64,000 nt of DNA from an uncultured Verrucomicrobiota bacterium (GTDB taxonomy: Bacteria > Verrucomicrobiota > Verrucomicrobiia > Limisphaerales > MWDV01), in the NCBI GenBank assembly GCA_964548925.1, contig CAZJTM010000003.1, forward strand, positions 16,155 to 80,154. Direction: 5' to 3'. Position 1 is the first letter of the stretch. Each line of letters opens with the position of its first letter. Below, in pieces: positions 10,236 to 58,256 of this stretch. A model generated the notes under the pieces. That model did no database searches. It was given only the letters and a program-made list of their open reading frames with translations, and was not told the DNA's origin. The translations under genes were made by a program, and so were the position numbers.

Positions 10236-10320
10236 TTAACGCAAAGGCGCAAAGGGGCAAAGGCGCAAAGGAAAACCTTTTTGCTCTCCGCGTCTTTGCG
10301 TCTTTGCGTCTTTGCGTTTA
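10236..10320. repeat. Family A palindromic element, copy A1 (AACGCAAAGNCGCAAAG arms)
   Basis: Left arm ttaacgcaaaggcgcaaaggggcaaaggcgcaaagg. Right arm cgtctttgcgtctttgcgtctttgcgttta. It fills the GxxExxY-stop to nuoM-start gap. Confidence 0.9.
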
Positions 10321-10797: not shown

Positions 10798-10888
10798 TTT
10801 TAACGCAAAGTCGCTAAGACGCAAAGACGCCAAGGAAAAACAAAGTCTTCCCTCTTTGCGCCTTTGCGTCTTTGCGTCTTTGCGTTGA
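10798..10888. repeat. Family A palindromic element, copy A2
   Basis: Arms tttaacgcaaagtcgctaagacgcaaagacgccaagg and ctctttgcgcctttgcgtctttgcgtctttgcgttgaa. Confidence 0.9.
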
Positions 10889-13213: not shown

Positions 13214-13400
13214 CTAACGCAAAGGCGCAAAGGCGCAAAGACGCAAAGCTTCGGAGCGCGACTGTGTGCGAAGCACCAGTCGCAGCACTTCCGCAACGCT
13301 GACGCGCTGCGGCTGGGTCTGCGACCACAGCCGCGCTCCGATAATTCGCAGCAGACTTTTGATTTTTCCGCGTCTTTGCGTCATTGCGTCTTTGCGTTGA
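13214..13400. repeat. Family A copy A3 with family B element (13250-13340) nested in its loop
   Basis: Arms ctaacgcaaaggcgcaaaggcgcaaagacgcaaagc and cgcgtctttgcgtcattgcgtctttgcgttga. The inner element cggagcgcgactgtgtgcgaagcaccagtcgcag...ctgcgaccacagccgcgctccg is self-complementary. Confidence 0.9.
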
Positions 13401-14433: not shown

Positions 14434-14514
14434 CTTTAACGCAAAGCCGCAAAGCCGCAACGACGGAGAGCAAAATCTCCTTTGCGACTTTGCGACTTTG
14501 CGTCTTTGCGTTGA
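14434..14514. repeat. Family A palindromic element, copy A5
   Basis: Arms ctttaacgcaaagccgcaaagccgcaacg and cctttgcgactttgcgactttgcgtctttgcgttga. It fills the nuoI-nuoJ gap. Confidence 0.9.
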
Positions 14515-16641: not shown

Positions 16642-17691
16642 CTAGTCTTTCTCCGAAAGCACCCGTTCCAATTCGGCCGGCGCGGGCAGCAGCTTGGCCA
16701 GAGGCTTTGGCAAGCGGTCCGTCAGCTTGTATTCCGCCACGCCGATGGGTTTGCGCAAGTCGCGCAACGCATACTCGACGACCGTGCGGCCTTTACCCTT
16801 GCACAGGATCAACCCGACCGACGGTTGGTCGTCCGGGTGCCGGACCTGTGCGTCGAGCGCCGACAAGTAGAAATTCATCTTGCCCGCGAACTCCGGCTCG
16901 AAATCACGCATCTTCAGGTCAATCGCGAAGAGGCAGCGCAGACGGTGATGAAAGAACAGCAAGTCCACGCGGAAATCCCGTCCGTCCACTTCGAGGCCAT
17001 ACTCGCTGCCGAGCAAGGCGAAGCCCGCGCCGAGTTCGAGCAGGAAATCTTTCAGCCGCTCCAGCAACGCGCGCTGGAGTTCCCGCTCCTTGGCCTGTTT
17101 CCTCACTTGCAGGAAATCGAAGACATAGGGGTCTTTCAAGGTCTGCGCGACCAACTCGGACTGTTTCGCGGGCAGCGTGTGCTTGAAGTTGTTTGCCTTG
17201 AGCGCGCCGGCCTGACGGCGATGCAAGCCGGTTTCAATCTGATGCACCAGCACCGCGCGCGACCAGCCGTTCGCGATCGTTTGCCGCGCATACCAGATGC
17301 GCTCGGCGGGGCTCTTAACGGAGTTCAACAGGACCAGATTGTGCCCCCACGGAATTTCTGCGACAAGCTGTCGCAGAATTTGGCGGTTGCGGTACGCCTC
17401 GAAGAAACGCCGCATGTCCCAGAGGTTGCGCGCGGAGAATCCCATCATCTCTGGAAACTCACGGCGCAAGTCCGCCGACAGTCTTTGAATCACGGCGTCG
17501 CCCCACCCAGCCGATTCCTGCCGTTCCATGATGCCCTTCCCGATTTCCCAATAGAGCACCACCATCTCGCGGTTCGCTGACAACGCAGCCTTGACCTGCG
17601 CCAAGCGGATACGCGACTTCAACTGCTGAAGCCAGGTCGCGTAACCCTTGGGCAGGGTTGGCGTCAAACTGCGTTGTTTCATTCGAGCCAT
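16642..17691 (-). CDS. DUF1016/YhcG-like PD-(D/E)XK nuclease (ATG 17691 preferred; track start 17805)
   Basis: YhcG-like N-terminal region (YWEIGKGIMERQ..WGDAVIQRLSADLRREFPEMMGFSARNLWDMRRFF). C-terminal nuclease core (FAIDLKMRDFEPEFAGKMNFYLSALD). The TAG stop abuts the nuoH ATG with a 0-nt spacer. Confidence 0.8.
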   Translation of the reverse strand: MARMKQRSLTPTLPKGYATWLQQLKSRIRLAQVKAALSANREMVVLYWEIGKGIMERQESAGWGDAVIQRLSADLRREFPEMMGFSARNLWDMRRFFEAYRNRQILRQLVAEIPWGHNLVLLNSVKSPAERIWYARQTIANGWSRAVLVHQIETGLHRRQAGALKANNFKHTLPAKQSELVAQTLKDPYVFDFLQVRKQAKERELQRALLERLKDFLLELGAGFALLGSEYGLEVDGRDFRVDLLFFHHRLRCLFAIDLKMRDFEPEFAGKMNFYLSALDAQVRHPDDQPSVGLILCKGKGRTVVEYALRDLRKPIGVAEYKLTDRLPKPLAKLLPAPAELERVLSEKD

Positions 17692-17823
17692 GTCTGGCAA
17701 ATCACCGCCGCACCGCTTGTCCAACAGCCTGTTGGACTTTTCGCCCGACGTCAGGCCAAATTCTGCGACAACCTGCCGCAGAATTAGTGCAACAAGCTGT
17801 TGCACAAATCAGCCTGCGCCGAT

Positions 17824-19509
17824 TCAAATCTTCACCGTCACGCCTGCGTCACCGAGACTGGCCCACGTCAGGCCATTGAACGCGGGCACATCCTTCGCCA
17901 TCTCGTTAAACAAACCCTCGATGGTCAGGAAACCGCCTTTGCCCAAGACGTTGAACACGAGGTCGTGCAGGAAATCCCATTCGGGCCGGGCGTCGCCCGG
18001 CGGCTCCACGGCTTTCATAAACTTCTGCACGCGACCTTTGGTGTTCGTGAACGTGCCGCGTTTCTCGGCGTGTGCGCAGCCGGGCAGGAGATAATGCGCC
18101 AACTTCGTTGTCGCGTTCGGCAAAATGTCGCTCACGACCAGCGTCTCCAGCTTGCCGAGCAAATCCGCGCCAAGGCCATGCTTCGTGACATCCTCACCGA
18201 AAGCGATCAGCGTCTTGATCTTCCCGCTCGCGATGCCGTCCGCGATCTTGGGCAGGTTGATGCCCATCTCGGTGAAGCACATCCCGGTCAGCCGCGCGCC
18301 ATTGGTGTTCGGATTCTTGTCGGCGCTCACGAGTAATTTGTCCGGCTCGCCGACGCGCTCGATGGAATCGCTGATCGCCCCCAGCTTCACCTTGAGCTTG
18401 CTCAACAGCCAGAGTTCTTCGTTCGTCTGCCGCGCGGAGGCGATGATGGCCACCGAACCCGCCGGAGCTTGCTTAAGTTTGTCGGCGATTTCGCTGAGCG
18501 CCTCGGTCCATGACGATTTCTCGCCGCGCACCAAAACGTCCTTCAAACGGTCATCGCGCTGAATCCACTTGTAGTTCAGGCGGCCGGAGTCGCACATCCA
18601 CGGGCCATTGACAGCGTCGTTCTCGCGCGGCGTGTAGCGGTAGATCCGTTCCTCGCGCGAGCCGATGACAATGTTGCAGCCCGTCCCACAACTCGTGCAG
18701 ACGCTCTTCGTTTCCTTCAGAAACCACACGCGCATCTGGAAACGAAAATCCTTCGATGTGAGCGCGCCCACGGGACAGATGTCCACGGTGTTGAGCGTGT
18801 AGTTGTTGTCGAACGGCATCCCCGGATACGTGGCGATGGTGTTGTAGCTGCCGCGATTGATGATGCCGAGGGCGTCGTCGCCCGCCACGTCCCTCGTGAA
18901 GCGAATGCAGCGCGAGCACAGGATGCAGCGCTCGGCGTCGAGCATGATGCGCGGGCCGAGATCAACGGCTTTGGGCTTGTGAACCTTCGCCTCGACGAAG
19001 CGGCTCGCGCTCTGGCCGTAGTCCACGGAATATTCCTGAAGCTTGCACTCGCCGGCCTGGTCGCAAATCGGGCAATCGAGCGGGTGATTGATTAGCAGGG
19101 ACTCCAGCACGCCTTCGCGCATGGCCTTCACGGTGGGCGTGTTCGTGTAAATCTCCATGCCCGGCGAAATCGGCGTGGCGCAGGCGATGGCCGGGCGTGG
19201 CGATTTGGCGATCTTCGGCGTGCCGTCGGGATTCAGGATGGGCTTGCGGTCCGGGCCGAGGGCGGGCGTGCCGAACTCGACGAGGCACATGCGGCAGTTG
19301 CCGGCGATTGGGAGCTTCGGATGATAGCAATAATGCGGCACCATCGCGCCCACGGCCTCAGCGGCTTGGATCATCGTCGTGGGCACGAGCTTGCCCTGCC
19401 AATCCGGCGAAAGCCGCGGCACTTCCACGTCGCGCCCGTCCACCGTCACCTTGATCTTTTCGATCGCGGGCGGCGCGGGCTTGGATTCAGTTGTAACGGC
19501 TGCTGACAT
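17824..19509 (-). CDS. nuoG: NADH-quinone oxidoreductase subunit G
   Basis: N-terminal 2Fe-2S region (CYHPKLPIAGNCRMCLV). 4Fe-4S motifs CPICDQAGEC and CILCSRCIRF. Followed by a molybdopterin-like domain. Confidence 0.93.
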   Translation of the reverse strand: MSAAVTTESKPAPPAIEKIKVTVDGRDVEVPRLSPDWQGKLVPTTMIQAAEAVGAMVPHYCYHPKLPIAGNCRMCLVEFGTPALGPDRKPILNPDGTPKIAKSPRPAIACATPISPGMEIYTNTPTVKAMREGVLESLLINHPLDCPICDQAGECKLQEYSVDYGQSASRFVEAKVHKPKAVDLGPRIMLDAERCILCSRCIRFTRDVAGDDALGIINRGSYNTIATYPGMPFDNNYTLNTVDICPVGALTSKDFRFQMRVWFLKETKSVCTSCGTGCNIVIGSREERIYRYTPRENDAVNGPWMCDSGRLNYKWIQRDDRLKDVLVRGEKSSWTEALSEIADKLKQAPAGSVAIIASARQTNEELWLLSKLKVKLGAISDSIERVGEPDKLLVSADKNPNTNGARLTGMCFTEMGINLPKIADGIASGKIKTLIAFGEDVTKHGLGADLLGKLETLVVSDILPNATTKLAHYLLPGCAHAEKRGTFTNTKGRVQKFMKAVEPPGDARPEWDFLHDLVFNVLGKGGFLTIEGLFNEMAKDVPAFNGLTWASLGDAGVTVKI

Positions 19510-19513
19510 TTTT

Positions 19514-19595
19514 AGTTAACGCAAAGGCGCAAAGACGCGGAGACGCAAAAGAAGAAACTCTTTGCGACTTGGCGACTTTGCATCTTGGCGTTGAA
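19514..19595. repeat. Family A palindromic element, copy A6
   Basis: Arms agttaacgcaaaggcgcaaagacgcggagacgcaaaag and ctctttgcgacttggcgactttgcatcttggcgttgaa. It fills the nuoF-nuoG gap. Confidence 0.88.
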
Positions 19596-19606
19596 ACAAT
19601 TTCATT

Positions 19607-21064
19607 TCACCTTGCAGCGGCGGGTTCTTCTTGCTCTGCCGCCGATGATTTCGAGACGACGGCATTTGGGGCGCGCTTCGCTTCGTCTGCTGCGCCTTTG
19701 GCTACAAACTCATCCTTGAACTTGGCAACGAAGCTCTGAACCGGCCACGAGCAGGCTTCGCCGAACGCGCAAATCGTGCGGCCGCCGGGGATGTTATCGG
19801 CAATCTTCGCCAGATACTCCGCGTCTTGGGCGCGCCCGCCACCGTGGGCGAGGCGATGCAGGGCCTTGCTCATCCAGAGCGAACCTTCCCGGCAGGGCGT
19901 GCATTGGCCGCAGCTTTCGTGCGCGTAAAACTCGGCGATGTTGGCCAGCGCTTCCACAATGTCCGTCGAGTCGTCCATCACGATGATCGCGCTCGAACCG
20001 CTCATCGAGCCCGCCTGAATGATGGTGTCGAAGTCGTAGGGCAGGTCGAGCATGTCCAACTCCTGCTCCACGTCCTTGCCGTCCACCTTGCGCTTGATTT
20101 TGAAGCGTTCGCCCGCCTTGAACACCTTGGCCGACGAGCCACCCGGGATCACAGCCTTCAACTGTCTCGGTGGCCCGCCCGGCTCGGGCTCCCGCAACCC
20201 ACCGCCAAATGCTGGATCGAAGATCAGATCGCGGAGTGTCACCTTGCCCGTTTCAACCTCGTAGTAGCCGGGCCGCTTGACGTGGCCGCTCAAGCTCACG
20301 ATGCGCGTGCCGGTGTTGTTCGGCGTGCCGAGCTTGGCGAATTCCGCGCCGCCCATCGCGACGATGTGCTTCACGTTGCAGAGCGTCTCGACGTTGTTCA
20401 CGATGGTCGGGCACATATAGAGGCCCAGCACCGCCGGGAAATACGGTGGCTTGATGCGCGGATACGGCCGCTTGCCTTCGAGCGATTCGATGAGGCCCGT
20501 TTCCTCGCCGCAGATGTAAGCGCCCGCACCGCGATGGACGTAGATTTCCAAATCGTAGCCACTGCCGAGAATGTTCTTGCCAAGAAAGTTCTTGGCGCGC
20601 GCTTCGGCCAAGGCCTTGTTGAGCAGCTTCGCTCCCTGCGGCATTTCGCCGCGGATGTAGATGTAGGCGAGCTTTACGTCGTTCGCGAAGCACGAGAGGA
20701 TCATGCCCTCGATGAGCTGGTGCGGATCCTTGTGGATGATTTGACGATCCTTGAATGTTCCTGGCTCGGATTCGTCGGCGTTGCAGATGAGATAGATCGG
20801 CTTGCCGCTCTTACGGTCCACGAAGCTCCACTTAAGCCCGCACGAGAAGCCCGCCCCGCCGCGACCGCGCAGGCCGGACTTCATGACTTCGTCCCGGATT
20901 TGCTCCTGTGGCGATTTCTGTTTGCCGTCGGGCAAAGCCATTGGCTGCATCGCCAGCACTTTCCTGAGCACCTCATAGCCGCCATGTCGCAAATAGCACT
21001 CGATGTCGGGCGTGTAACCCGGCTGATCGGCGTATTTGAGGATGAGGCGGTATTCGGAGGGCAT
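19607..21064 (-). CDS. nuoF: NADH-quinone oxidoreductase subunit F
   Basis: Motifs GRGGAGFSCGLKW and ESCGQCTPCREG. It carries an Ala/Glu-rich C-terminal tail of about 40 aa. Confidence 0.95.
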   Translation of the reverse strand: MPSEYRLILKYADQPGYTPDIECYLRHGGYEVLRKVLAMQPMALPDGKQKSPQEQIRDEVMKSGLRGRGGAGFSCGLKWSFVDRKSGKPIYLICNADESEPGTFKDRQIIHKDPHQLIEGMILSCFANDVKLAYIYIRGEMPQGAKLLNKALAEARAKNFLGKNILGSGYDLEIYVHRGAGAYICGEETGLIESLEGKRPYPRIKPPYFPAVLGLYMCPTIVNNVETLCNVKHIVAMGGAEFAKLGTPNNTGTRIVSLSGHVKRPGYYEVETGKVTLRDLIFDPAFGGGLREPEPGGPPRQLKAVIPGGSSAKVFKAGERFKIKRKVDGKDVEQELDMLDLPYDFDTIIQAGSMSGSSAIIVMDDSTDIVEALANIAEFYAHESCGQCTPCREGSLWMSKALHRLAHGGGRAQDAEYLAKIADNIPGGRTICAFGEACSWPVQSFVAKFKDEFVAKGAADEAKRAPNAVVSKSSAAEQEEPAAAR

Positions 21065-21074
21065 GTTAGCGTGG

Positions 21075-21095
21075 TGCGTGATGCGTAATGCGTGA
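21075..21095. repeat. Three tandem heptamers (tgcgtga tgcgtaa tgcgtga) just upstream of the nuoF start
   Basis: Read directly from the sequence. The minus-strand translation would be the ITHHA-type repeat peptide. Confidence 0.7.
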
Positions 21096-21153
21096 ACCCA
21101 AGGCCCGGCTTGACTGGGCGGGGAAAGGGTTTAGGCTTTCCACCGCTCCGGCT

Positions 21154-21227
21154 TGCCCGATGGTGTAACGGTAGCACAGCAGACTCTGGATCTGTTTGTC
21201 ATGGTTCAAATCCATGTCGGGCAGCCA
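21154..21227 (+). tRNA. tRNA-Gln (anticodon CTG), CCA encoded
   Basis: Manual cloverleaf. Acceptor TGCCCGA/TCGGGCA is 7/7 paired with U1-A72 and G73. D stem GTGT/GCAC. Anticodon stem GCAGA/TCTGT with loop CTCTGGA. T arm CATGG-TTCAAAT-CCATG. Total 74 nt. It lies on the strand opposite the surrounding nuo genes. Confidence 0.85.
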
Positions 21228-21271
21228 ACTTCCGTTTACGGGTCGAAGCTTGCGGATAGCGAACTTCTTTT

Positions 21272-21724
21272 TCATTTCGCCCTCCTCCGCAGTTTAAGCG
21301 TCTGGTCAATCGCGTGAATGTGAGCCGGATCTTTGTCCCGCATCACGGCGGCCTTACTCTTGCGGATGGACTCCAACGGCATGACGGGAATCTCGCAACC
21401 GTGGAATTTCAGTTTGTGCGCCTTTCGCATCTCAGTGCTGAACGTGTCGAGGCCGGTAACTTCGTAGATAAAATTCACCAGCATCCCGTCGCTCAATTCC
21501 ACGACGGTGTTGCGGACCATGGCTGCCCCCAAGCGCAAGGCGACGTTCACCGCGCGCATGTATTGGCGGGCGGGAAGGTCAATCCACAGGTCCACATCGT
21601 GCGTGACCACCGGAACACCTTGGAGGAGGGCTGCAGTCATGCCTATGAGCTGGAAGCGAATTTTTTCAGCGCGGAGCGCCCCCACAAGCCGAACGAGCGG
21701 AGATACGTCTCGTTTATCTGCCAA
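21272..21724 (-). CDS. Nucleotidyltransferase-fold protein (minimal NTase / DUF6036-like); start uncertain (TTG 21724, GTG 21685, or track ATG 21862)
   Basis: IRFQLIGMTAALLQGVPVVTHDVDLWIDLP resembles the G-x-A...T-x-D-x-D NTase core. The N-terminal 45 codons of the 196-aa track ORF are Arg-rich and overlap a better-looking small ORF in another frame. Confidence 0.5.
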   Translation of the reverse strand: MADKRDVSPLVRLVGALRAEKIRFQLIGMTAALLQGVPVVTHDVDLWIDLPARQYMRAVNVALRLGAAMVRNTVVELSDGMLVNFIYEVTGLDTFSTEMRKAHKLKFHGCEIPVMPLESIRKSKAAVMRDKDPAHIHAIDQTLKLRRRAK

Positions 21725-21843
21725 CGTTCGTCTGGTGTCGCCGCCAGACTTCGGGCGTAGAGGACCTTTTCGTGCTCGTCCAAGCCGCGCACGCGTTTGA
21801 TGCGTGCGTAAACTTTCCGCCAATCTTTGAGGCTTGTTTGCAT
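21643..21843 (-). CDS. Hypothetical 66-aa helical protein (possible partner of the NTase-like gene)
   Basis: MQTSLKDWRKVYARIKRVRGLDEHEKVLYARSLAATPDERWQINETYLRSFGLWG has balanced composition. It starts 29 nt after the nuoE stop and overlaps the start region of the downstream NTase-like ORF. Confidence 0.4.
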   Translation of the reverse strand: MQTSLKDWRKVYARIKRVRGLDEHEKVLYARSLAATPDERWQINETYLRSFGLWGRSALKKFASSS

Positions 21844-21872
21844 GTTTGCGCCTGGTTGCCATCCGGAATCGT

Positions 21873-22358
21873 CTATTTGCACTTGGCCACTATTTCGTCT
21901 GCTTTGGCGCGGCTGACGCCTTCATGGAAATCGTCGTTCACCATGATGACTGGCGCCGTGCCGCAACTGGCCAGGCATTCGACGAACTCAACCGTGAACT
22001 TGCCGTCCTTCGTCGTCTGCGGACCGTGTTTGTGCGCGTCGAGCCCCAACTTCTCGCAAAAGTGCTTGTGCAGTTGATATGAGCCGCCGAGCGCGCAGCT
22101 CAACGTGCGGCAAACCTTGATTTGATACTTTCCGACCGGCTGCTGCCGGAACATCGGGTAGAACGTGACCAGTTCGTAAACGTTGATCGGTTGCAGGCCG
22201 AGCTTCCTGGCCGTCCACTCGACGGCTTCCTGCGAAATCCAGCCGAAGTGTTCCTGAATCGCATGCAGCACCATGAGCGACGCGCTGCGCTTCACGGGAT
22301 AATGCGTGATCAGCTCGTCAATCTCGGCTTCCAAACTGGCTGGGATGGCGAAACTCAT
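21873..22358 (-). CDS. nuoE: NADH-quinone oxidoreductase subunit E
   Basis: 161-aa thioredoxin-like 2Fe-2S subunit (VCRTLSCALGG, ECLASCGTAPV). 4-nt overlap with nuoD. Confidence 0.93.
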   Translation of the reverse strand: MSFAIPASLEAEIDELITHYPVKRSASLMVLHAIQEHFGWISQEAVEWTARKLGLQPINVYELVTFYPMFRQQPVGKYQIKVCRTLSCALGGSYQLHKHFCEKLGLDAHKHGPQTTKDGKFTVEFVECLASCGTAPVIMVNDDFHEGVSRAKADEIVAKCK

Positions 22359-23629
22359 CGGTCACACTCCCCCATCACGAAGTCGAACGAGCCCAAGATC
22401 GCCGTTGTGTCGCTCATCATGTGGCCGGGCAAAAGGTGCGACAGGATGCTCAGGTTGCAGAAGGAAGGCGAACGAATCTTCATCCGATACGGCGTGCCGC
22501 CGCCGCGGCTGTGGATGTAGAAGCCCAATTCGCCCTTCGGATTCTCGTGCCCGAAGTAGATTTCGCCGGGCGGACAGTTCACGCCTTGCGTCACGAGCAT
22601 GAACTGGTGGATCAGTTCCTCCATGCTCGACATGACCTTGTGCTTGGGCGGCAACACGATCTTGCCATCGCTGACACACACTGGTTCTTTCGACTCGTTC
22701 TCAAAGCCACCGGGAATCTTATCGAGGCATTGATGGATAATCCGCACGCTTTGGCGCATTTCCTCCATGCGGACGAGGTAGCGGTCGTAGCTGTCGCCGA
22801 CTTCGCCGAGCGGCACGTCGAACTGCAAATCCGGGTAGCACAAATACGGCTGCGCCTTGCGCAAATCGTACTCCACCCCGCTGCCGCGCAGGTTCGGGCC
22901 GGTCAAGCCGTAGTCGAGCGCGTCTTCCTTCGAGATCACGCCGACATCCTTGGTCCGGTCAATCCAGATTCTGTTTCGCGTGAGCAACGTCTCGACCTCG
23001 GCGATGTTAACCACGACCTCGTTCAGAAACTTGCGCACGGCCGCGCACCAGCCGGGCGGCGTGTCGCGCGAAACCCCGCCGATGCGCGTGTAAGTGGTCG
23101 TGAACCGCGCGCCGGAGAGGGCCTCAGCCAGGTTGTGAATCTTTTCGCGCTCGGTGAACGTGATCAGGAACACCGTCATCGCGCCGACGTCCATGGCGAA
23201 GCAGCCAATGCCGAGCAAGTGCGACGAGATTCGGGCGAGTTCCGCGCAGATCACCCGGATGTATTGGCAGCGCGGCGGCAGCCCGTCGTGGATGCCGAGG
23301 AGCTTCTCGACCGCAAGCGCGTAGGCGACGTTGTTCGCGAGCGGCGCGAGGTAATCCAGCCGATCCGTATACGGGATGAACTGGGTGTAGGTCATGTTCT
23401 CGGCGATCTTCTCGTCGCCACGGTGGAGGTAGCCGATGTCGGGCGTCGCCTTGGTGATGACCTCGCCATCGAGTTCCAGCACGATGCGCAACACACCGTG
23501 CGTGGACGGATGCGACGGCCCCATGTTCAGGATCATCTTCTCGCCCTGAACGTCGGCAAGGTCTTCGACCGCGGCCTGGGCGGCGCGCCCGGCGCTGTCT
23601 TGGAACTCGATGTCGCGAACTTCAGGCAT
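22355..23629 (-). CDS. nuoD: NADH-quinone oxidoreductase subunit D
   Basis: 424-aa 49-kDa subunit (LNMGPSHPSTHGVLR, MEELIHQF, C-terminal DFVMGECDR). Confidence 0.95.
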   Translation of the reverse strand: MPEVRDIEFQDSAGRAAQAAVEDLADVQGEKMILNMGPSHPSTHGVLRIVLELDGEVITKATPDIGYLHRGDEKIAENMTYTQFIPYTDRLDYLAPLANNVAYALAVEKLLGIHDGLPPRCQYIRVICAELARISSHLLGIGCFAMDVGAMTVFLITFTEREKIHNLAEALSGARFTTTYTRIGGVSRDTPPGWCAAVRKFLNEVVVNIAEVETLLTRNRIWIDRTKDVGVISKEDALDYGLTGPNLRGSGVEYDLRKAQPYLCYPDLQFDVPLGEVGDSYDRYLVRMEEMRQSVRIIHQCLDKIPGGFENESKEPVCVSDGKIVLPPKHKVMSSMEELIHQFMLVTQGVNCPPGEIYFGHENPKGELGFYIHSRGGGTPYRMKIRSPSFCNLSILSHLLPGHMMSDTTAILGSFDFVMGECDR

Positions 23630-23660: not shown

Positions 23661-24074
23661 TCATGGCTTCGCCTCCGGCGGAAGCAAATTCAGCACGAAA
23701 TCGTAAAGGGCTTGGGCATCTCGCAGTGCTGCGTCAAATTCCTCACGCGTTGGCATCGGGTCCTCGGTGAGTCCCGGATAACGGAAGGCAGAAACGTAAG
23801 GCGTGAGCCGTTCCGCGGTTCCGGTGAAAAGGGTGAAGTCAGTTCGCAACGCGGCGGCCTGTCGGATGAGCCGTCGGAGGTCATGCGTCTTTTCAAATGA
23901 AACATTCCGGGCCGCAAGCCAGCCTTTCACGGCCTTCTCCGCCGCCTGCTGGCAATGATAGATGGCGGTGTCAAGCGGCCCCCCGGCGGCGTTGGCTGTG
24001 ATGCGCGCCGTTTGCAGATCGTGCAGCGCCTTGGTCAACCATTCGCGCGTCAGCCTGGAAATGGCCTCATCCAT
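23661..24074 (-). CDS. HEPN domain protein (ATG 24074 preferred)
   Basis: MDEAISRLTREWLTKALHDLQTA...AIYHCQQAAEKAVKGWL...FEKTHDLRRLI shows the typical HEPN helix pattern. 8-nt overlap with the upstream MNT gene. Confidence 0.8.
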   Translation of the reverse strand: MDEAISRLTREWLTKALHDLQTARITANAAGGPLDTAIYHCQQAAEKAVKGWLAARNVSFEKTHDLRRLIRQAAALRTDFTLFTGTAERLTPYVSAFRYPGLTEDPMPTREEFDAALRDAQALYDFVLNLLPPEAKP

Positions 24075-24387
24075 AAAGTTTTCGCCCCCGGTGCAGGATG
24101 TCGTGCTGGATGGACGCGCGCAAATCCTTGTAGCGGTCAAATTCCTCCCGCGTTTGCACAAACACGTCCTTGCTCATGTCCAAGTCGCCCAGGCACCGAT
24201 GCGCGCGTTGCATCCGACGGATCGCTCGTTCGTTGCTTTCGGGGACAATCACCATCAAGTCCACATCGCTGTCCTCGTGCGGCGTGCCCCAGGCATGGGA
24301 GCCGAACAGGAATATCTGCTCCGGCTGGAACTCGGCTTTCAGCCGTTCCACGGCCTTCTCCAACAATCCTGCCGGGATTTCTTTCAT
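24067..24387 (-). CDS. Minimal nucleotidyltransferase (MNT) domain protein
   Basis: Pol-beta-type NTase motif LFGSHAWGTPHEDSDVDLMVIV. It starts 13 nt after the nuoC stop. Confidence 0.85.
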   Translation of the reverse strand: MKEIPAGLLEKAVERLKAEFQPEQIFLFGSHAWGTPHEDSDVDLMVIVPESNERAIRRMQRAHRCLGDLDMSKDVFVQTREEFDRYKDLRASIQHDILHRGRKLYG

Positions 24388-24400
24388 GGTTAATCCAAGA

Positions 24401-24979
24401 TCAGATTTCGGGCGTTCTTACCCGTGGCTCGCGCTCAATGGCATCCTTCCCGCCGGGCAAGGTCACGAACGGCCCGCCTTCGATGGGCGCGGCTTTCGTG
24501 AACGCCACGTCCGGCACTTCCGTCGGCTTGCCGGCGACAGGGAAGTCCTTGCGTAGTGGATGATACGGGTAGCCTTCCCACATGATGATTCGACGCAAAT
24601 CCGGGTGGTTGCGAAACCGGATTCCCATCATGTCGTAAATCTCGCGCTCGTGCCACTCAGCCGTGCGCCAGACGCCCGTGACGGTCGGCAGCTCGGATTT
24701 CTCTTCGCTTACGCGGGTCCGCAGGCGCAGGTAGCAGCGGTGCGCAACGCCATAAAGCTCATAGACGATCAGCCAGCGCGGGTCGTCGCCGTAGTTGTCC
24801 ACGCTCGAAATGTCCACGAGGAAATCGGAACCCAAGTCCTTCTTCGCAAAGGCGCACACCTCGACAATCCGCTCGGCATCCGCGACATCCATCGTCACTT
24901 CGCCGCGAAACTCCGCCGGCTCGGAGAGGGTTTCTCCGAACTTGGCGCGGAGTTGCTTGGCGAGTTCGAGGGCGGTCAC
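24401..24979 (-). CDS. nuoC: NADH-quinone oxidoreductase subunit C (GTG 24979 preferred over GTG 25021)
   Basis: 30-kDa subunit (WRTAEWHEREIYDMMGIRFRNHPDLRRI). The 14 extra track codons (SICVHPWFQFLF) translate the family E repeat arm. Confidence 0.9.
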   Translation of the reverse strand: MTALELAKQLRAKFGETLSEPAEFRGEVTMDVADAERIVEVCAFAKKDLGSDFLVDISSVDNYGDDPRWLIVYELYGVAHRCYLRLRTRVSEEKSELPTVTGVWRTAEWHEREIYDMMGIRFRNHPDLRRIIMWEGYPYHPLRKDFPVAGKPTEVPDVAFTKAAPIEGGPFVTLPGGKDAIEREPRVRTPEI

Positions 24980-24997
24980 AGTAAAAAGAAATTGAAA

Positions 24998-25137
24998 CCA
25001 CGGATGGACACAGATGGACACGGATAAGACGTAGCAGCCGACGTGAGGAGGCTCTGATTTCCTTTCAGTTTGAGCCTCGTTACCTCGGCTGCTACAGAAT
25101 CTCTTGTGAATCCGTGTTTATCCGTGTTCATCCGTGG
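24998..25137. repeat. Composite nested palindrome: family E arms flanking a family D hairpin
   Basis: E arms ccacggatggacacagatggacacggataag (24998-25028) and gtgaatccgtgtttatccgtgttcatccgtgg (25106-25137) are inverted copies. Inner hairpin gtagcagccgacgtgaggaggctc...gagcctcgttacctcggctgctac spans 25031-25095. The element fills the nuoB-nuoC gap. Confidence 0.88.
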
Positions 25138-25143
25138 TTGAAG

Positions 25144-25674
25144 CTACTTTCCGGGCGGCAACGCCGGGCCTGGTCGCTTCAGTGTTGCCAGCAACGGCTC
25201 GCGCATGAGTTTGCCCTGAAGCTTGAGCAGCGCGTCGAGCAACGCCTCGGGTCGCGGCGGACAACCGGCGACGTAGAAATCCACCGGGAGGATGTGGTCC
25301 ACGCCTTGCAGGACAGAATAGCTCCGATACATGCCTCCCGTGGACGCACACGCGCCCATGGCGATGACCCATTTCGGCTCGGCCATCTGGTCGTAGAGCC
25401 GCTTCACCACCGTGGCCATCTTGTAGGTCACCGTGCCGGCGACGATCATCACGTCCGATTGCCGCGGGGAAAAGCGCATCACCTCCATGCCGAAGCGGGA
25501 GATGTCGTAGCGGCTCGCGCCCGTGCCCATGAGTTCGATGGCACAGCAAGCCAACCCCATCGGCATCGGCCAGATGGAGTTCTTGCGAAACCAGTTCAAA
25601 GCGGCGTCCAGCCGAGTAACGACAACGTCGCCCTCGACCTTCGTGTTGTAGCCTATTTCGGTGGTGTTTTGCAC
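25144..25674 (-). CDS. nuoB: NADH-quinone oxidoreductase subunit B (GTG start)
   Basis: Motifs [20 protein letters not shown] and [11 protein letters not shown]. Confidence 0.95.
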
Positions 25675-25892
25675 AGGCTGCGCCGCGGTCGGTTTGCGCG
25701 TGGAACCTAGTGAGGCCCCCGAGGAGTCGCAAGGTGAAACTCCGCCATTTCAGGGCGGTTGTGGCGAAATTCCCGCCCCGACAGCAAAACTAAACAAGCG
25801 ATGCGCAACCGGAGTCAGTTCGTGCGGCCCAACTGCCAAAACATTGGGGTCAGCGAGAACTCACCGAAACCTCCCACCAGCCGCAATCAAGC

Positions 25893-26552
25893 TTAGTTCA
25901 GTCGCGACACGCGAAACTGGCTGAACCGCGCCCAATGTTCGGCGTCCGGCGGGCCTTGGTAACAATGCAGGCTGACCTTCGCCTGGCCTTGCGGTGAAGC
26001 GGGCATCTCGCCCGAACCCGCTTCACGCCACTTTTCCGCTCCTAGAGGCAAATACTCGCCGCGAATCTTCCGACCGGCCACAAGCAACCGCACCCGCACC
26101 GAGGTCACGGCGATGGGAATCTTGGCCAGCGTGCGCGTCTGGTCGGCCTCCTCGCGCCCCATGACGATGCACACCTCGCCATCCACGAGTTCCAAGCCCA
26201 GCTTCACCATGTGGCTGTCATCGTAATACCAGGCCAGGTTCGCCTGCTCGTACTGGTGCGTGGGGAAATTGGTGATGGTGACGGAAGCCTCGACTTCGCC
26301 GCCCTCCACAACCGGCGCGGGGCGGACAAGGACGTTTTTCGCGTTATTCGCCCCACCCCAGAGGTTGCCGGGCAACACGCGCATCTCAAGCCCTCGGCCC
26401 GTAATCCGCCAATTCGCCCGGTCTTCCCGCACCCACGACCACCCGTCACTGAGCTGGCTGGTGAAGTCGTCTTTGAACAGCACTTCCTCGGCAGCGCAAC
26501 TCAGGGCGAGGGGCAGGGTAACCAGGAAGAGTCCAAGGTGTTGGAGTTGCAT
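25893..26552 (-). CDS. Secreted concanavalin A-like lectin/glucanase-fold protein (GH43-C2/DUF1349-like)
   Basis: Signal peptide (LFLVTLPLALSCAAE). LFKDDFTS..GWSWVREDRANWRITGRGLEMRVLPGNLW and ANLAWYYDDSHMVKLGLE match the pattern as recalled. Confidence 0.5.
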   Translation of the reverse strand: MQLQHLGLFLVTLPLALSCAAEEVLFKDDFTSQLSDGWSWVREDRANWRITGRGLEMRVLPGNLWGGANNAKNVLVRPAPVVEGGEVEASVTITNFPTHQYEQANLAWYYDDSHMVKLGLELVDGEVCIVMGREEADQTRTLAKIPIAVTSVRVRLLVAGRKIRGEYLPLGAEKWREAGSGEMPASPQGQAKVSLHCYQGPPDAEHWARFSQFRVSRLN

Positions 26553-29464: not shown

Positions 29465-32400
29465 TCAACCCGGCTCGGCGGCGTTGGCGGCGGCGGCGAC
29501 GCTTTCGATCACGCGGGCGGCGCCGGGCAGGGTTTCGCGCAGCATTCCGACGCGACTGTTGAGCTGCACCACCGTTTCCACCGCCCGATAGGCCACCAAC
29601 CGCCGGTACCAGTCCACGAACGCGCGGCTGACGTTCAACTCCTCGGCGGCGCTTTGCGGGCACAAGCCCGGCTGCGCTTCGAGGGTCGCGCACAGGATGG
29701 CGGCGGCCACGGCGCGCGGCGGGCGCGCGCCGTTGCAGGCACGCTCCCAGAGCGGCTGCGCCTGGCGGGCCTGCTGGCTCAACAGCAGCGCCTCGGCACG
29801 TTGGCCAACGAGCGCCAAATCATCGGGAAAGAGGCGAACCGCCTCGTTCGTCCAATCGCGGGCGAACTCCAAAAAGGCCGGCTGGCTCAACGCAATCTCG
29901 CCGCCCAGCCGCCACGCCAGGGCGTGTTTCGCATTCTGTTGCACGACTTCATGCAGGCGTTGCAGCGCCTCCACCGGTCGTCCTTGCGCGACGAGGAAGC
30001 GGGCGTAATCCACCCGCAGATCTTCCGTCTTGGCGGCGGAGGCCAGCCCGGCTTGGAAGGCCTTCTCCGCGCCTGCGGCGTCGTTCAGTTTCGCCAACGA
30101 CAGTGCCAGGCAATGGTGGGGCGCGGCAGTGAGAATGTCCGTGTTGATCGGCGAGAGCGCGGGCTGTTTCAGCTTGGCGAGGCACTGGCGCATCTGCTCG
30201 GCGGCTTCGCGCGGCTGCTTCAATTCGTAATGCGACAATCCCAAGGCAAAGTGCATGGATGCCGTGAGCCCGCCGCCGCTCCGGGCCAGTGAGGAATTCA
30301 GGACCTGCACCACTTCGTCGTGGGCGCGAATCTTGTAGAGATGCGAGGTGAACTGGGTGAGCAGGACCTCGCGCAACTCGGGCACGACTTCGTTGGGCTT
30401 TTGCGCGGACATGAGCCGGAAGGCGTCGCGGTATTTCGCGATGCCCGACTCCACTTCACCCGAGCGGGCGAGTTCGAGCCCGAGATTCAGCGTGAGGTTG
30501 ATGTCGGTTGGGCGTTCCTCCAAACCGAGCCGGAGCAGGCGCAGGTTGCGCTCGATCTTGTTCCGGTCTCTGACCAGCTCCTTGCTGTAGCCGTGATGCA
30601 ACAGGCAGGCGGTGCCGAGCGCGGTGTCCATGCCGAATGTCTTGCAGAGCGGCAGCAGGCTGGGAAACACCTGCTCGTGAATCCGGCCGTAGTAGTAAGC
30701 GCCGGGGGCGTTGCGGAAGAGCCGCGGGATGAAGCTGCGGCCCTCGGCTTCCTGGCCGCGGTTGACCAGCGGCAGGCGGAAGGCGATGGCGTCGGCCTTG
30801 CGCAGGTCCGCGCGCAAGGCGGCGTGCTGATCGCCGGGCAATTCCTCGTCGGCGTCGAGCATCAGAATCCAATCGCCCGTGGCGTGCTCCAGGATCCGGT
30901 TGCGCGGCGCGCTGAAGTCGTCATTCCAGGTCGTCGTGTAAACCTCCGCGCCGAGCGACTTCGCAATTTCGATCGTGCGATCCGTCGAGCCGGTGTCCAC
31001 GACGATGATCTGGTCGGCCAGCCCCTTGACCGAGTTGAGGCACTGCGTGATGAACTGTTCCTCGTTCCGGGTGAGGACGCCGACGGTCAGCCGACTTCGG
31101 ATTTCGGATTTCGGATTTCGGATTTGCTCCGGCAACGCCAGCCACTCCGGCTTCGCGCCGCCCTTGAGCGGCTTCTTCAGAAATTGCTTCGGTGCGTTCC
31201 AGCGAGGTGCCAGTTCAGCAGCGCGGTGGGCGCAGCTTTTTGCCGAAGCGGCATCGCCGGCGGCCAGGGCGATTTCGGCAAGCAGCAGGCAGGCTTCGGG
31301 ATGGAAGGGGCGGACTTGAAGCGCGGTGCAGGCGGCTTGCCACGCGGCGGCGAACTCGCGGCGGCCAAACGCCCCGCGGGCTTCATCCAGTTGCCCCAAC
31401 TTGGCTGCTCCGGCCCCGGCTCGTGAGAGCGGGGATTCGCCGGTCACCACTCGCGAACTCATGCTCGCGGCTACCGGTTGCCAGAAGCGTTCACTGTTGC
31501 CTTTGTGCGTCAGTGTGAGCGCGGAGAGTGGAATGTTGAGCGAGACGCCGGCGGGCAGTTGCTGCGGGATGGGATAGCCCTTTTCGAGCGCCACGTCGGC
31601 GGGCAGTTGCCACTTGGCGCGGAACAAATCCCAGTTGCGCAGCATGGCGGAGCGATAGTCAATCTTCGCGCCTTTGAAGGTTTGACTGCCAGTGTGGTGA
31701 ATGAAGACATCCTTCGCAATGCGGATGCGGAAGCCGGCGAGCCGCGCGCGAATGCAGAAATCATCGTCCTCGAAATTGCCGCTGCCGAACCGCTCATCCA
31801 ATCCGCCGATGCGCTCGATGACTTCGCGCCGCGCCAGCAGGCAGAAGCCCACCGCGCGCCCGACCTCGAACGATTGGCCGGCGTGAGTCTGCGCCCACTG
31901 CTTGGCGAAGGCCGGCAAGCCCGACAAATCCGTGTAGCCGACTTCGCTCACGAACTGCGGCCCAGAGACGCGATTGGACATCGGGCCGACAACCCCGGTG
32001 TCCGGCTCGCGCCGGAGCACATCCAACATGCCTTCGAGCCAGCCAGCGGTGACGACCGTGTCATTGTTCAACAGCACCACGTTCTGACCGCGGGCGAGGG
32101 CCAAGCCCTGGTTGTTACCGGCGGCAAAGCCCAGATTCGTCTCGTTGTGGATGACGATGCCGTGGGGCGTCTTGGCCAGCCACTCGCGCAGAAACTCCGG
32201 CGTGCCGTCGTTCGAACCGTTGTCCACCACGATGATCTCATGTGGCAGCGGGGTGTGGGCGGCGAGACTCTCCAGACACCTGCGCGTATGCTCAAGCTGA
32301 TTCAGCACGAGAAGGATGACCGAGGCCATCGGCTTACCGGCGGCGGACGCCGGAGCAGCTTCCCCAGCCGGAGTTGAGACCGCCGGGCTTCCCAAGAGAT

Positions 32401-58083: not shown

Positions 58084-58256
58084 CAAATCCGAAATCCGAA
58101 ATCCGAAATCCAAAACAACACCGAAGCTCGAAACCCGAAACCGCCGCTGTTCCATGCCCGGGAAGTGAGTCGGGCGGGTGGCAGTCGCTCCGACCGTCCA
58201 CCGTCGGTTTTCGGAATCCAGGATTCTCTTGGAGTTCGGGTTTCGGATTTTGAATT
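58084..58256. repeat. Palindromic element built on ccgaaat heptamers (family F) between birA and coaX
   Basis: Left arm caaatccgaaatccgaaatccgaaatccaaaac..gctcgaaacccgaaacc. Right arm ggttttcggaatcc..gagttcgggtttcggattttgaatttc. The right arm ends at the birA stop codon. Confidence 0.85.

Follow-up and report, generated by a model that had tools for sequence, protein, structure and literature searches.

A conserved head-on tRNA-Gln(CTG) gene and a probably accessory small-protein/nucleotidyltransferase cassette at the nuoE-nuoF junction of Verrucomicrobiota

Minimal nucleotidyltransferases (NTases) paired with a small protein are exemplified by MenAT1 (Rv0078B/Rv0078A) of Mycobacterium tuberculosis, in which an antitoxin of 68 aa inhibits an NTase toxin that attaches cytidine monophosphate (CMP) to tRNA 3' ends (PMC10435456). 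The gene pair that we compare with it lies between nuoE and nuoF in the minus-strand complex I operon of an uncultured Verrucomicrobiota bacterium, next to a tRNA-Gln(CTG) gene on the opposite strand; "the window" denotes the whole 64,000-nucleotide stretch analysed (assembly GCA_964548925.1, contig CAZJTM010000003.1, positions 16,155 to 80,154), and coordinates are those of the window unless a locus is named. A tRNA gene embedded in a protein-coding operon is familiar from the thrU-tyrU-glyT-thrT-tufB operon of E. coli, whose tRNAs are co-transcribed with the protein gene. There the tRNAs are co-oriented with it and processed from the same transcript, whereas here the tRNA gene is on the opposite strand, has what appears to be its own promoter, and keeps its orientation among relatives. 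Extra genes within complex I operons also have precedents. In the Paracoccus nqo and Rhodobacter nuo clusters, literature of the 1990s described non-subunit open reading frames (ORFs), the URFs, between the nqo or nuo genes, including between nuoE and nuoF; we know of no antisense tRNA gene in those clusters, and their URFs are not known to us as NTase, HEPN, or PD-(D/E)xK cassettes. A literature search found no paper on a tRNA gene between nuoE and nuoF.

A preliminary description of the window, made from its sequence, had proposed that an antisense tRNA and an inserted two-gene NTase-like module split nuoE from nuoF and that this junction is the likeliest place for a transcriptional break in the operon. 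Our analysis leads to a different view of the history of the site. We consider it likely that two features of different age share the junction: an ancient tRNA gene with its own promoter and an accessory, exchangeable NTase cassette of toxin-antitoxin (TA)-like character.

The tRNA gene (74 nt; 21154-21227, plus strand) was recognized by ARAGORN, which accepts the cloverleaf and reports it as the sole tRNA in the window, and by Rfam (RF00005, 62.7 bits versus a gathering score of 29). Both programs agree with the well-formed tRNA-Gln of the preliminary description, and its location inside the minus-strand operon, antisense to it and with its 5' end 89 nt from the nuoF ATG, is likewise borne out. 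Read directly from the sequence, the gene has U1-A72, G73, an encoded CCA, and the anticodon CUG. U1-A72 and G73 together with a CUG anticodon are identity elements for glutaminyl-tRNA synthetase, known from E. coli; the tRNA-Gln of some relatives has A73 instead of G73. On the tRNA's other side, a 44-nt convergent spacer (21228-21271) extends from its 3' end to the NTase stop codon at 21272. The corresponding distance to the stop codon of the upstream ORF ranges from 52 down to 2 nt in relatives, and in one locus (L009) the ORF overlaps the tRNA by 29 nt. The 29 loci compared contain 14 distinct tRNA-Gln sequences. Compensatory double changes keep the stems paired in 7 of 22 pairs, and the cloverleaf is never lost in the 17 sequences examined. 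As judged from these substitution patterns, the tRNA-Gln is selected as a tRNA.

Upstream of the tRNA lies a putative promoter on the same strand (21110-21137), with a −35 box TTGACT (21110-21115), a 16-nt spacer, and a −10 box TAGGCT (21132-21137) that ends 16 nt 5' of the mature tRNA end. When the 100 nt upstream of the tRNA were aligned, CTTGACT was found at a constant distance from the tRNA, followed after 16 to 17 nt by TAnnnT, in 29 of 29 loci; in a separate metagenome sample TTGAC precedes the tRNA in 41 of 44 loci, and it is present in Limisphaera as well. We conclude from this sequence conservation that tRNA-Gln(CTG) appears to be a functional tRNA gene with its own conserved promoter.

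Two samples define how widely the arrangement is distributed. In the first, a GTDB scan with one genome per species, selected via the module, yielded 41 module loci, mostly labelled Verrucomicrobiia, Pedosphaera, Limisphaerales, or subdivision 3. The second was drawn by the tRNA alone, with a degenerate tRNA core pattern that returned 120 metagenome loci, 44 of them in nuo context. Homologues of the long ORF of the module all belong to Verrucomicrobiota, and each contig fetched through them (L001-L009) has the order nuoE, module, antisense tRNA-Gln(CTG), nuoF. Among the GTDB species loci, 29 of 41 are in nuo context, and the antisense tRNA is present in all that reach far enough, 29 of 29 informative species genomes. 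The tRNA is also antisense in every one of the 44 metagenome nuo loci; the module, by comparison, is absent from 38 of these, present in 5, and reduced to a remnant in 1. Where both flanks are available (36 metagenome loci), nuoE ends at most 60 nt from the tRNA 3' end in 23, the minimum being 2 nt. The arrangement persists over considerable divergence: L055 retains the antisense tRNA at 49% NuoE and 64% NuoF identity to the window, and L096 retains it likewise. The nearest named relative of the L055 NuoF is that of Limisphaera sp. VF-2, whose genome reads nuoE, 122 nt, antisense tRNA-Gln(CTG), 74 nt, nuoF, without the module. A close relative of the window (L078, NuoF 88% identical) also lacks the cassette.

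These bare nuoE-tRNA-nuoF loci indicate that the tRNA separated nuoE from nuoF long before the module arrived. The idea of a recent insertion that split the two genes thus fails on synteny, since the same tRNA placement occurs without the module in 38 of 44 loci and in Limisphaera. We propose that the head-on position of tRNA-Gln(CTG) between nuoE and nuoF was already fixed when a large clade of Pedosphaerales/Limisphaerales-type Verrucomicrobiota began to radiate. The tRNA itself is an ordinary one; what is unusual is its conserved head-on position.

The location of the module raises the possibility of a recent insertion, at the tRNA-Gln 3' end, of a mobile integrative element that split a continuous nuoE-nuoF operon. 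The cassette is indeed on the tRNA 3' side and missing from most relatives, the cargo of this slot differs by lineage, and in one locus (L107) tandem tRNA-Gln copies around an insert look like attachment (att) sites. In these respects the locus resembles genomic islands at tRNA 3' ends, which have variable cargo beside the tRNA and patchy occupancy. However, no integrase adjoins the module, which consists of the small ORF and the NTase only, flanked by nuoE and nuoF; the 25-mer of the tRNA 3' end has no second copy in the window at up to 3 mismatches; and a search for att or inverted repeats around the module, including 21860-21900, returned only short, chance-level matches and no convincing direct repeat. 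The absence of an integrase and of a tRNA 3'-end repeat had already been noted in the preliminary description and is upheld here. Moreover, the separation of nuoE and nuoF by the tRNA is also found where the cassette is missing and greatly predates it, and the cassette occupies the same nuoE-tRNA site in at least 29 species at 55 to 81% protein identity, so it is not recent. We therefore regard a recent integrative element as very improbable, the reading being largely refuted by the bare loci. What stands of the insertion view is that the module was inserted at the tRNA 3' side, most relatives being bare; a recent date does not. In contrast to islands at tRNA 3' ends, the locus is integrase- and att-less, its cargo measures 0.6 kb, and nuo junctions without a tRNA also carry cassettes. 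It is therefore more likely that the slot is filled by recombination between conserved flanks or by another route.

The L107 locus is an observation in its own right. Its tRNA-Gln(CTG) copies, at 1555-1627 (slightly aberrant) and 2483-2556 of that locus, flank an insert of ∼850 nt with a 157-aa and a 74-aa ORF, neither of which has a Pfam match, and upstream of them lies a remnant in which the small ORF and the NTase gene are fused by deletion. This is the sole att-like duplication that we encountered.

In compact relatives the tRNA-nuoF spacer is 46 to 57 nt long and occupied by the tRNA promoter, the nuoF start codon lying 3 to 12 nt from the −35 box, and that promoter points away from nuoF. 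These spacers are too tight for a terminator or an independent nuoF promoter. A simple scan for consensus sigma-70 promoters and terminators over 20900-22000 found nothing, including no terminator-like site in the 44-nt spacer at 21228-21271; the scan missed the tRNA promoter too, and its negative result for a nuoF promoter thus carries little weight. Tight spacers filled by the tRNA promoter favor read-through over a separate nuoF promoter. Most likely, nuo mRNA would read through the antisense tRNA to reach nuoF, and tRNA and nuo transcription would meet head-on. The head-on tRNA-Gln(CUG) might in addition punctuate the complex I operon as a conserved regulatory element, through promoter throttling or transcript processing, an idea to which we give little probability. 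When the tRNA promoter fires, it could throttle nuoF-N relative to nuoB-E, its −35 box overlapping the region in which nuoF translation starts. A second possible route is processing, either after the abundant tRNA has paired with the 74 nt of nuo mRNA complementary to it or by RNase P/Z-type cleavage of the mirror cloverleaf.

The second feature of the junction is the cassette. The preliminary description had placed a two-gene NTase-like module at 21272-21843, 45 nt beyond the tRNA 3' end; the module is real, and the gap measures 44 nt. Its first gene is a small minus-strand ORF of 66 aa (21643-21843, ATG at 21843) in a frame that we call f1 and that is under purifying selection up to the residues GLWGRS. 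The second is the minimal NTase gene in frame f0 (21272-21724, minus strand), with candidate starts TTG (21724-21722) and GTG (21685-21683) and a frame that stays open up to an ATG at 21862. The two genes share 40 nt or more, and in 43 of 43 loci, free-standing copies included, the small ORF is read at +1 relative to the NTase frame. Public records of such loci (P0004, P0012, and P0023, from NCBI and JGI) annotate a single hypothetical protein of 196 to 202 aa. To locate the frame under selection, nucleotide diversity by codon position was calculated over 32 nuo-embedded loci. The variable position is f1 position 3 (f0 position 1) up to the f1 residues GLWGRS and f0 position 3 from about f0 residue 67 onward, and hence f0 is not the frame under selection over the opening ∼50 codons of the 196-aa annotation. 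The 5' part of the annotated ORF (21725-21862, minus strand) is open in f0 and unselected in that frame, and it codes for the small protein in f1. Between the two regimes lies a dual-constraint zone of ∼28 nt (21673-21700, minus strand), read as PLVRLVGAL in f0 and RSFGLWGRS in f1, with a run of five G (G5) at 21679-21683; conservation of its nucleotides extends from nuo-embedded to free-standing copies. A run of six A (A6) follows just downstream (∼21661-21666). Both cassette products are under strong purifying selection.

The public annotation would be correct if translation began at the ATG that lies 10 nt past nuoE and gave a single 196-aa protein with a basic, disordered N-terminal tail, the small ORF being overprinted or spurious. 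In keeping with this, nearly all embedded loci have an open f0 from this moderately conserved ATG onward, and gene callers as well as NCBI predict 196 to 205 aa. However, selection over the first ∼50 codons acts on f1 and not on f0, one locus (L039) has f0 stop codons within the 5' region, and residues 1-48 of the long protein are unstructured in the AlphaFold2 (AF2) model, whereas the small ORF folds confidently. A single 196-aa product is thus quite improbable, and the codon-position pattern points to a systematic misannotation in these metagenome-assembled genomes (MAGs), the first ∼50 codons being part of a different reading frame. The long form could be made additionally.

The small protein is strongly conserved, with 82% mean column identity and 224 close homologues of 62 to 67 aa. 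Among 1.84 billion proteins it has 141 representative clusters, all of small stand-alone proteins save three unrelated large repeat proteins at weak E values. AF2 predicts helices at residues 5-15, 23-34, and 37-50 followed by a floppy tail, with predicted local distance difference test (pLDDT) values of 78 to 89 over residues 1-50. It had no match in Pfam, NCBIfam, or PADLOC, and a PDB profile search and Foldseek gave noise only.

How the NTase frame is reached bears on whether the cassette makes two proteins or one. Separate initiation of the NTase is most likely. The candidate internal starts derive from f1 Trp codons, and in embedded copies f0 codon 47 is GTG in 13, ATG in 4, TTG in 5, and CTG in 10, and f0 codon 60 is GTG in 16, ATG in 10, TTG in 2, and CTG in 4; in free-standing copies codon 60 is never GTG or ATG, TTG in 5, and CTG in 6. 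Neither codon is start-capable in all loci, and we rejected both as a universal f0 start. A different explanation is a programmed −1 frameshift at the G5 run or at a G-AAA-AAA run that fuses the small domain to the NTase as one polypeptide. The constant frame relation in all 43 loci, the abrupt switch of the selected frame, and the lack of a start codon conserved throughout (codon 60 is CTG in 6 of 11 free-standing copies) are what such a mechanism would leave. So is one locus (L027, ∼1698-2288 of QHOP01000381.1) in which a 1-nt insertion directly after the G run, exactly at the switch, fuses the small ORF in frame to the NTase domain ("GLWGQFLAEKIRF"; in context "...LGLWGQFLAEKIRFQLIGM..."); that fusion may be either natural or an assembly error. 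On the other hand, no slippery heptamer is conserved in the overlap: the A6 run occurs in 21 of the 32 embedded copies and in 3 of the 11 that are free-standing, the G5 run occurs in embedded copies only, and both were rejected as the frameshift site. Natural fusions are rare, with no small protein-NTase fusion among the listed homologues or in the representative library and, apart from the three large repeat proteins, no representative longer than 129 aa among the 141. In addition, f0 seems constrained from P55, upstream of the G run, and the two candidate start codons are never both CTG in a single locus. We judge a programmed frameshift unlikely, if still credible, and return to separate initiation as the preferred route to the NTase.

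The NTase has a recognizable fold. AF2 modeled residues 50-196 of the annotated protein with pLDDT above 90 and residues 1-48 with pLDDT below 50. Foldseek placed the model closest to TM1012 of Thermotoga maritima (PDB 2ewr/2fcl/4hx0), a putative nucleotidyltransferase of Pfam family DUF2204 (E = 9e-7; template modeling [TM] score 0.66 on the target), and also matched LnuA, MenT1 (8an5/8an4; E ∼1e-4, TM score ∼0.55), and ANT(2'')-Ia. Consistent with this, a profile search of the PDB returned only TM1012 (E = 1e-3), in an alignment that covers helix 1, the G motif, and the DxD motif; fold and motif register are thus common to the two proteins. DUF2204 itself scores 17.3 bits on the NTase (E = 0.0039), below its gathering cutoff of 20.3, and this sub-threshold match was the only Pfam result at E ≤ 0.01, with no match to DUF1814 (PF08843). 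G74, D89, D91, D95, K170, and D178 are invariant or nearly so. The catalytic motifs G74-M-S76 and D89-x-D91 are conserved, leaving the G-x-S...DxD center intact.

With MenAT1 the cassette has in common a short helical protein upstream (68 aa in MenA1, 62 to 67 aa here), a single-domain NTase that follows it, and the fold and catalytic G-x-[ST]...D-x-D center of the NTase. The two systems differ in that the cassette NTase is without a DUF1814/PF08843 match and in that its gene overlaps that of its partner by 40 nt or more, with the −1 relation of frames held constant. Immediately upstream, where MenAT/AbiE-type systems encode their antitoxin, the cassette always has the conserved helical protein, a candidate antitoxin that belongs to no known family and shows no relationship to MenA1 or COG5340. 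A Pfam search found no HEPN match in this partner, and the pair does not qualify as an MNT-HEPN (type VII) system. We conclude that the cassette is a new, uncharacterized member of the minimal-NTase world with a MenAT1-like organization and a partner unrelated to MenA1. Architecture, fold, and population behavior together suggest that the NTase is most likely a toxin-like enzyme and the small helical protein its inhibitor, as in MenAT1. The cassette is co-oriented with nuo and starts 10 to 29 nt after the nuoE stop codon, and it would thus probably be expressed by hitchhiking on nuo transcription.

The population behavior is that of an accessory gene pair. Eleven of the 41 GTDB hits are free-standing cassettes, without nuo genes or a tRNA within 4 kb, and one MAG has both a free-standing (L046) and an embedded copy (L012). 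Decay is also seen: in L143 (1648-1827) a small ORF 88% identical to that of the window stands between nuoE and the tRNA with no NTase, as an orphan remnant, and L107 retains the small/NTase deletion fusion. In a neighbor-joining tree of NuoD, NuoE, and NuoF (1096 columns), module-bearing and module-free loci are intermixed, and the deepest branches are module-free. The NTase tree, in turn, splits deeply into two clades (∼57% identity) whose distribution does not match the host tree; at 89% NuoDEF identity, L011 and L016 belong to one NTase clade and L026 and L028 to the other. Pairwise NTase and NuoDEF identities have a Spearman correlation of 0.35. In several loci the nuoE-tRNA slot is taken by other cargo, namely, an acyltransferase_3 gene (L053), a lipoprotein-like ORF of ∼230 aa (L105 and L144), and the 157- and 74-aa pair of L107. 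Such behavior fits small selfish or defense-type cassettes that occupy slots between conserved genes, and the cassettes were probably moved by recombination in the conserved flanks.

The same data bear on whether the cassette is instead a domesticated host function, its NTase acting on tRNA-Gln or nuo mRNA or its products serving as complex I accessory or assembly factors. Strong purifying selection on both products, a position and orientation right after nuoE that are fixed in all embedded copies, and a fold family that includes tRNA 3'-end modifying enzymes would agree with this. Its absence from 38 of 44 related loci, that of the close relative L078 among them, argues against it, as do the free-standing copies without nuo or tRNA neighbors, the decayed copies L143 and L107, and allele clades incongruent with the host tree. 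Domestication is in our view improbable. The free-standing copies without a tRNA neighbor further suggest that the adjacency of cassette and tRNA reflects an insertion slot and not a functional link.

Several points weigh against the view of an ancient tRNA joined by an exchangeable TA-like cassette. Neither cassette protein reaches threshold in Pfam, NCBIfam, or PADLOC, and the small protein is similar neither to MenA1 nor to any solved structure. The best structural match of the NTase, TM1012, is a protein without an assigned function or partner and names a fold, not a mechanism; MenT1 matches at a TM score of only ∼0.55. A domesticated function would likewise be compatible with the strong purifying selection and with retention of the cassette at a single site in 29 or more species. 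The trees, built by neighbor joining, carry no support values and many metagenome loci are short. Finally, read-through, head-on conflict, and hitchhiking are all drawn from spacing and nothing else.

The junction under study is one of several in this operon that contain additional genes. On the minus strand of the window the order is nuoB (25144-25674), nuoC (24401-25021), an MNT nucleotidyltransferase gene (24067-24387; NTP_transf_2, E = 2e-11, with a weak MntA match), a HEPN gene (23661-24161; E = 2e-23), nuoD (22355-23629), nuoE (21873-22358; Pfam 2Fe-2S_thioredx, E = 2e-48), the cassette, nuoF (19607-21064; Complex1_51K plus NADH_4Fe-4S), nuoG (17824-19509), and a DUF1016_N plus YhcG_C PD-(D/E)xK nuclease gene (16642-17805), past which lie nuoH, I, J, L, M, and N. 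The MNT and HEPN genes between nuoC and nuoD are a second TA-like cassette of the same operon, and the nuclease between nuoG and nuoH matches PDC-S02 (E = 4e-146), a candidate defense family of PADLOC. Relatives carry yet other genes at nuo junctions, encoding Uma2, PDDEXK_3, a hypothetical protein plus D12 methyltransferase (MethyltransfD12), Y1_Tnp, DUF2442, a glyoxalase-family protein, and a 199-aa protein; the junctions concerned are F-G and H-I (L001, L005, L006, and L009), D-E (L150), and tRNA-F (L167 and L034). We conclude that junctions between nuo genes appear to serve quite generally, in this group of genomes, as landing slots for small cassettes. At the upstream end of the operon, no nuoA-sized ORF directly adjoins nuoB (25675-25892). 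The next gene upstream, at 25893-26552 on the minus strand, encodes a secreted DUF1349/GH43_C2-like protein, and nuoA may be encoded elsewhere.

The spacer between nuoF and the tRNA also contains a tandem array of heptamers. An exact pattern search recovers the three tgcgt[g/a]a heptamers previously described at 21075-21095, and Tandem Repeats Finder (TRF) delimits the array as GCGTGAT repeated 3.9 times with period 7 (21069-21095), between the nuoF start codon and the −35 box. The array is not conserved: compact relatives have none at the site, and others have different arrays of 7 to 8 nt that flank the tRNA on either side (GAAACGT ×3 and ATTTWCG ×4 in L007, GATTTAC arrays in L014 and L019). 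Intergenic spacers of the window are rich in short tandem arrays, many of them inverted pairs of period 8 or 10 with 3 to 4 copies that fold into long hairpins, such as the tandem-octamer hairpin (ACGCAAAG)4 ... (TCTTTGCG)4. Spacers with inverted arrays are found at 10240-10317, 10803-10885, 13218-13397, 14440-14510, 19519-19590, and 24999-25136, and also at 31096-31125 and 58085-58115; they include the nuoG-nuoF and nuoB-nuoC spacers, the former with a predicted fold of −35.6 kcal/mol (z = −4.9). These hairpins could be mRNA stabilizers, processing sites, or elements like the repetitive extragenic palindromic (REP) class. The heptamers are part of a genome-wide class of spacer repeats and not a specific conserved site. 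The longer tRNA-nuoF spacers of L010, L013, and L131 are also repeat-like, and several of their frames give strings of the type LTPALSPGERA / SPGGEGRGEG, which suggests a dispersed palindromic repeat family.

For the family of minimal NTases, the cassette adds a pair of small protein and NTase with a fixed −1 overlap that is publicly annotated as one 196-aa hypothetical protein; MenT-type NTases act on tRNA 3' ends. If our reading of the cassettes is true, junctions of a core operon host TA- and defense-like cassettes that ride on host transcription, a kind of island distinct from integrase-borne elements. If that of the tRNA is true, an essential, multi-gene respiratory operon has long carried an actively promoted gene on its opposite strand and would be a natural system for permanent head-on transcription, with a nuo mRNA complementary to an abundant tRNA and an arrangement that, being present in cultured Limisphaera, is testable. 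Should the tRNA also act as regulatory punctuation, the stoichiometry of respiratory-chain subunits would be coupled to tRNA transcription and hence to growth rate.

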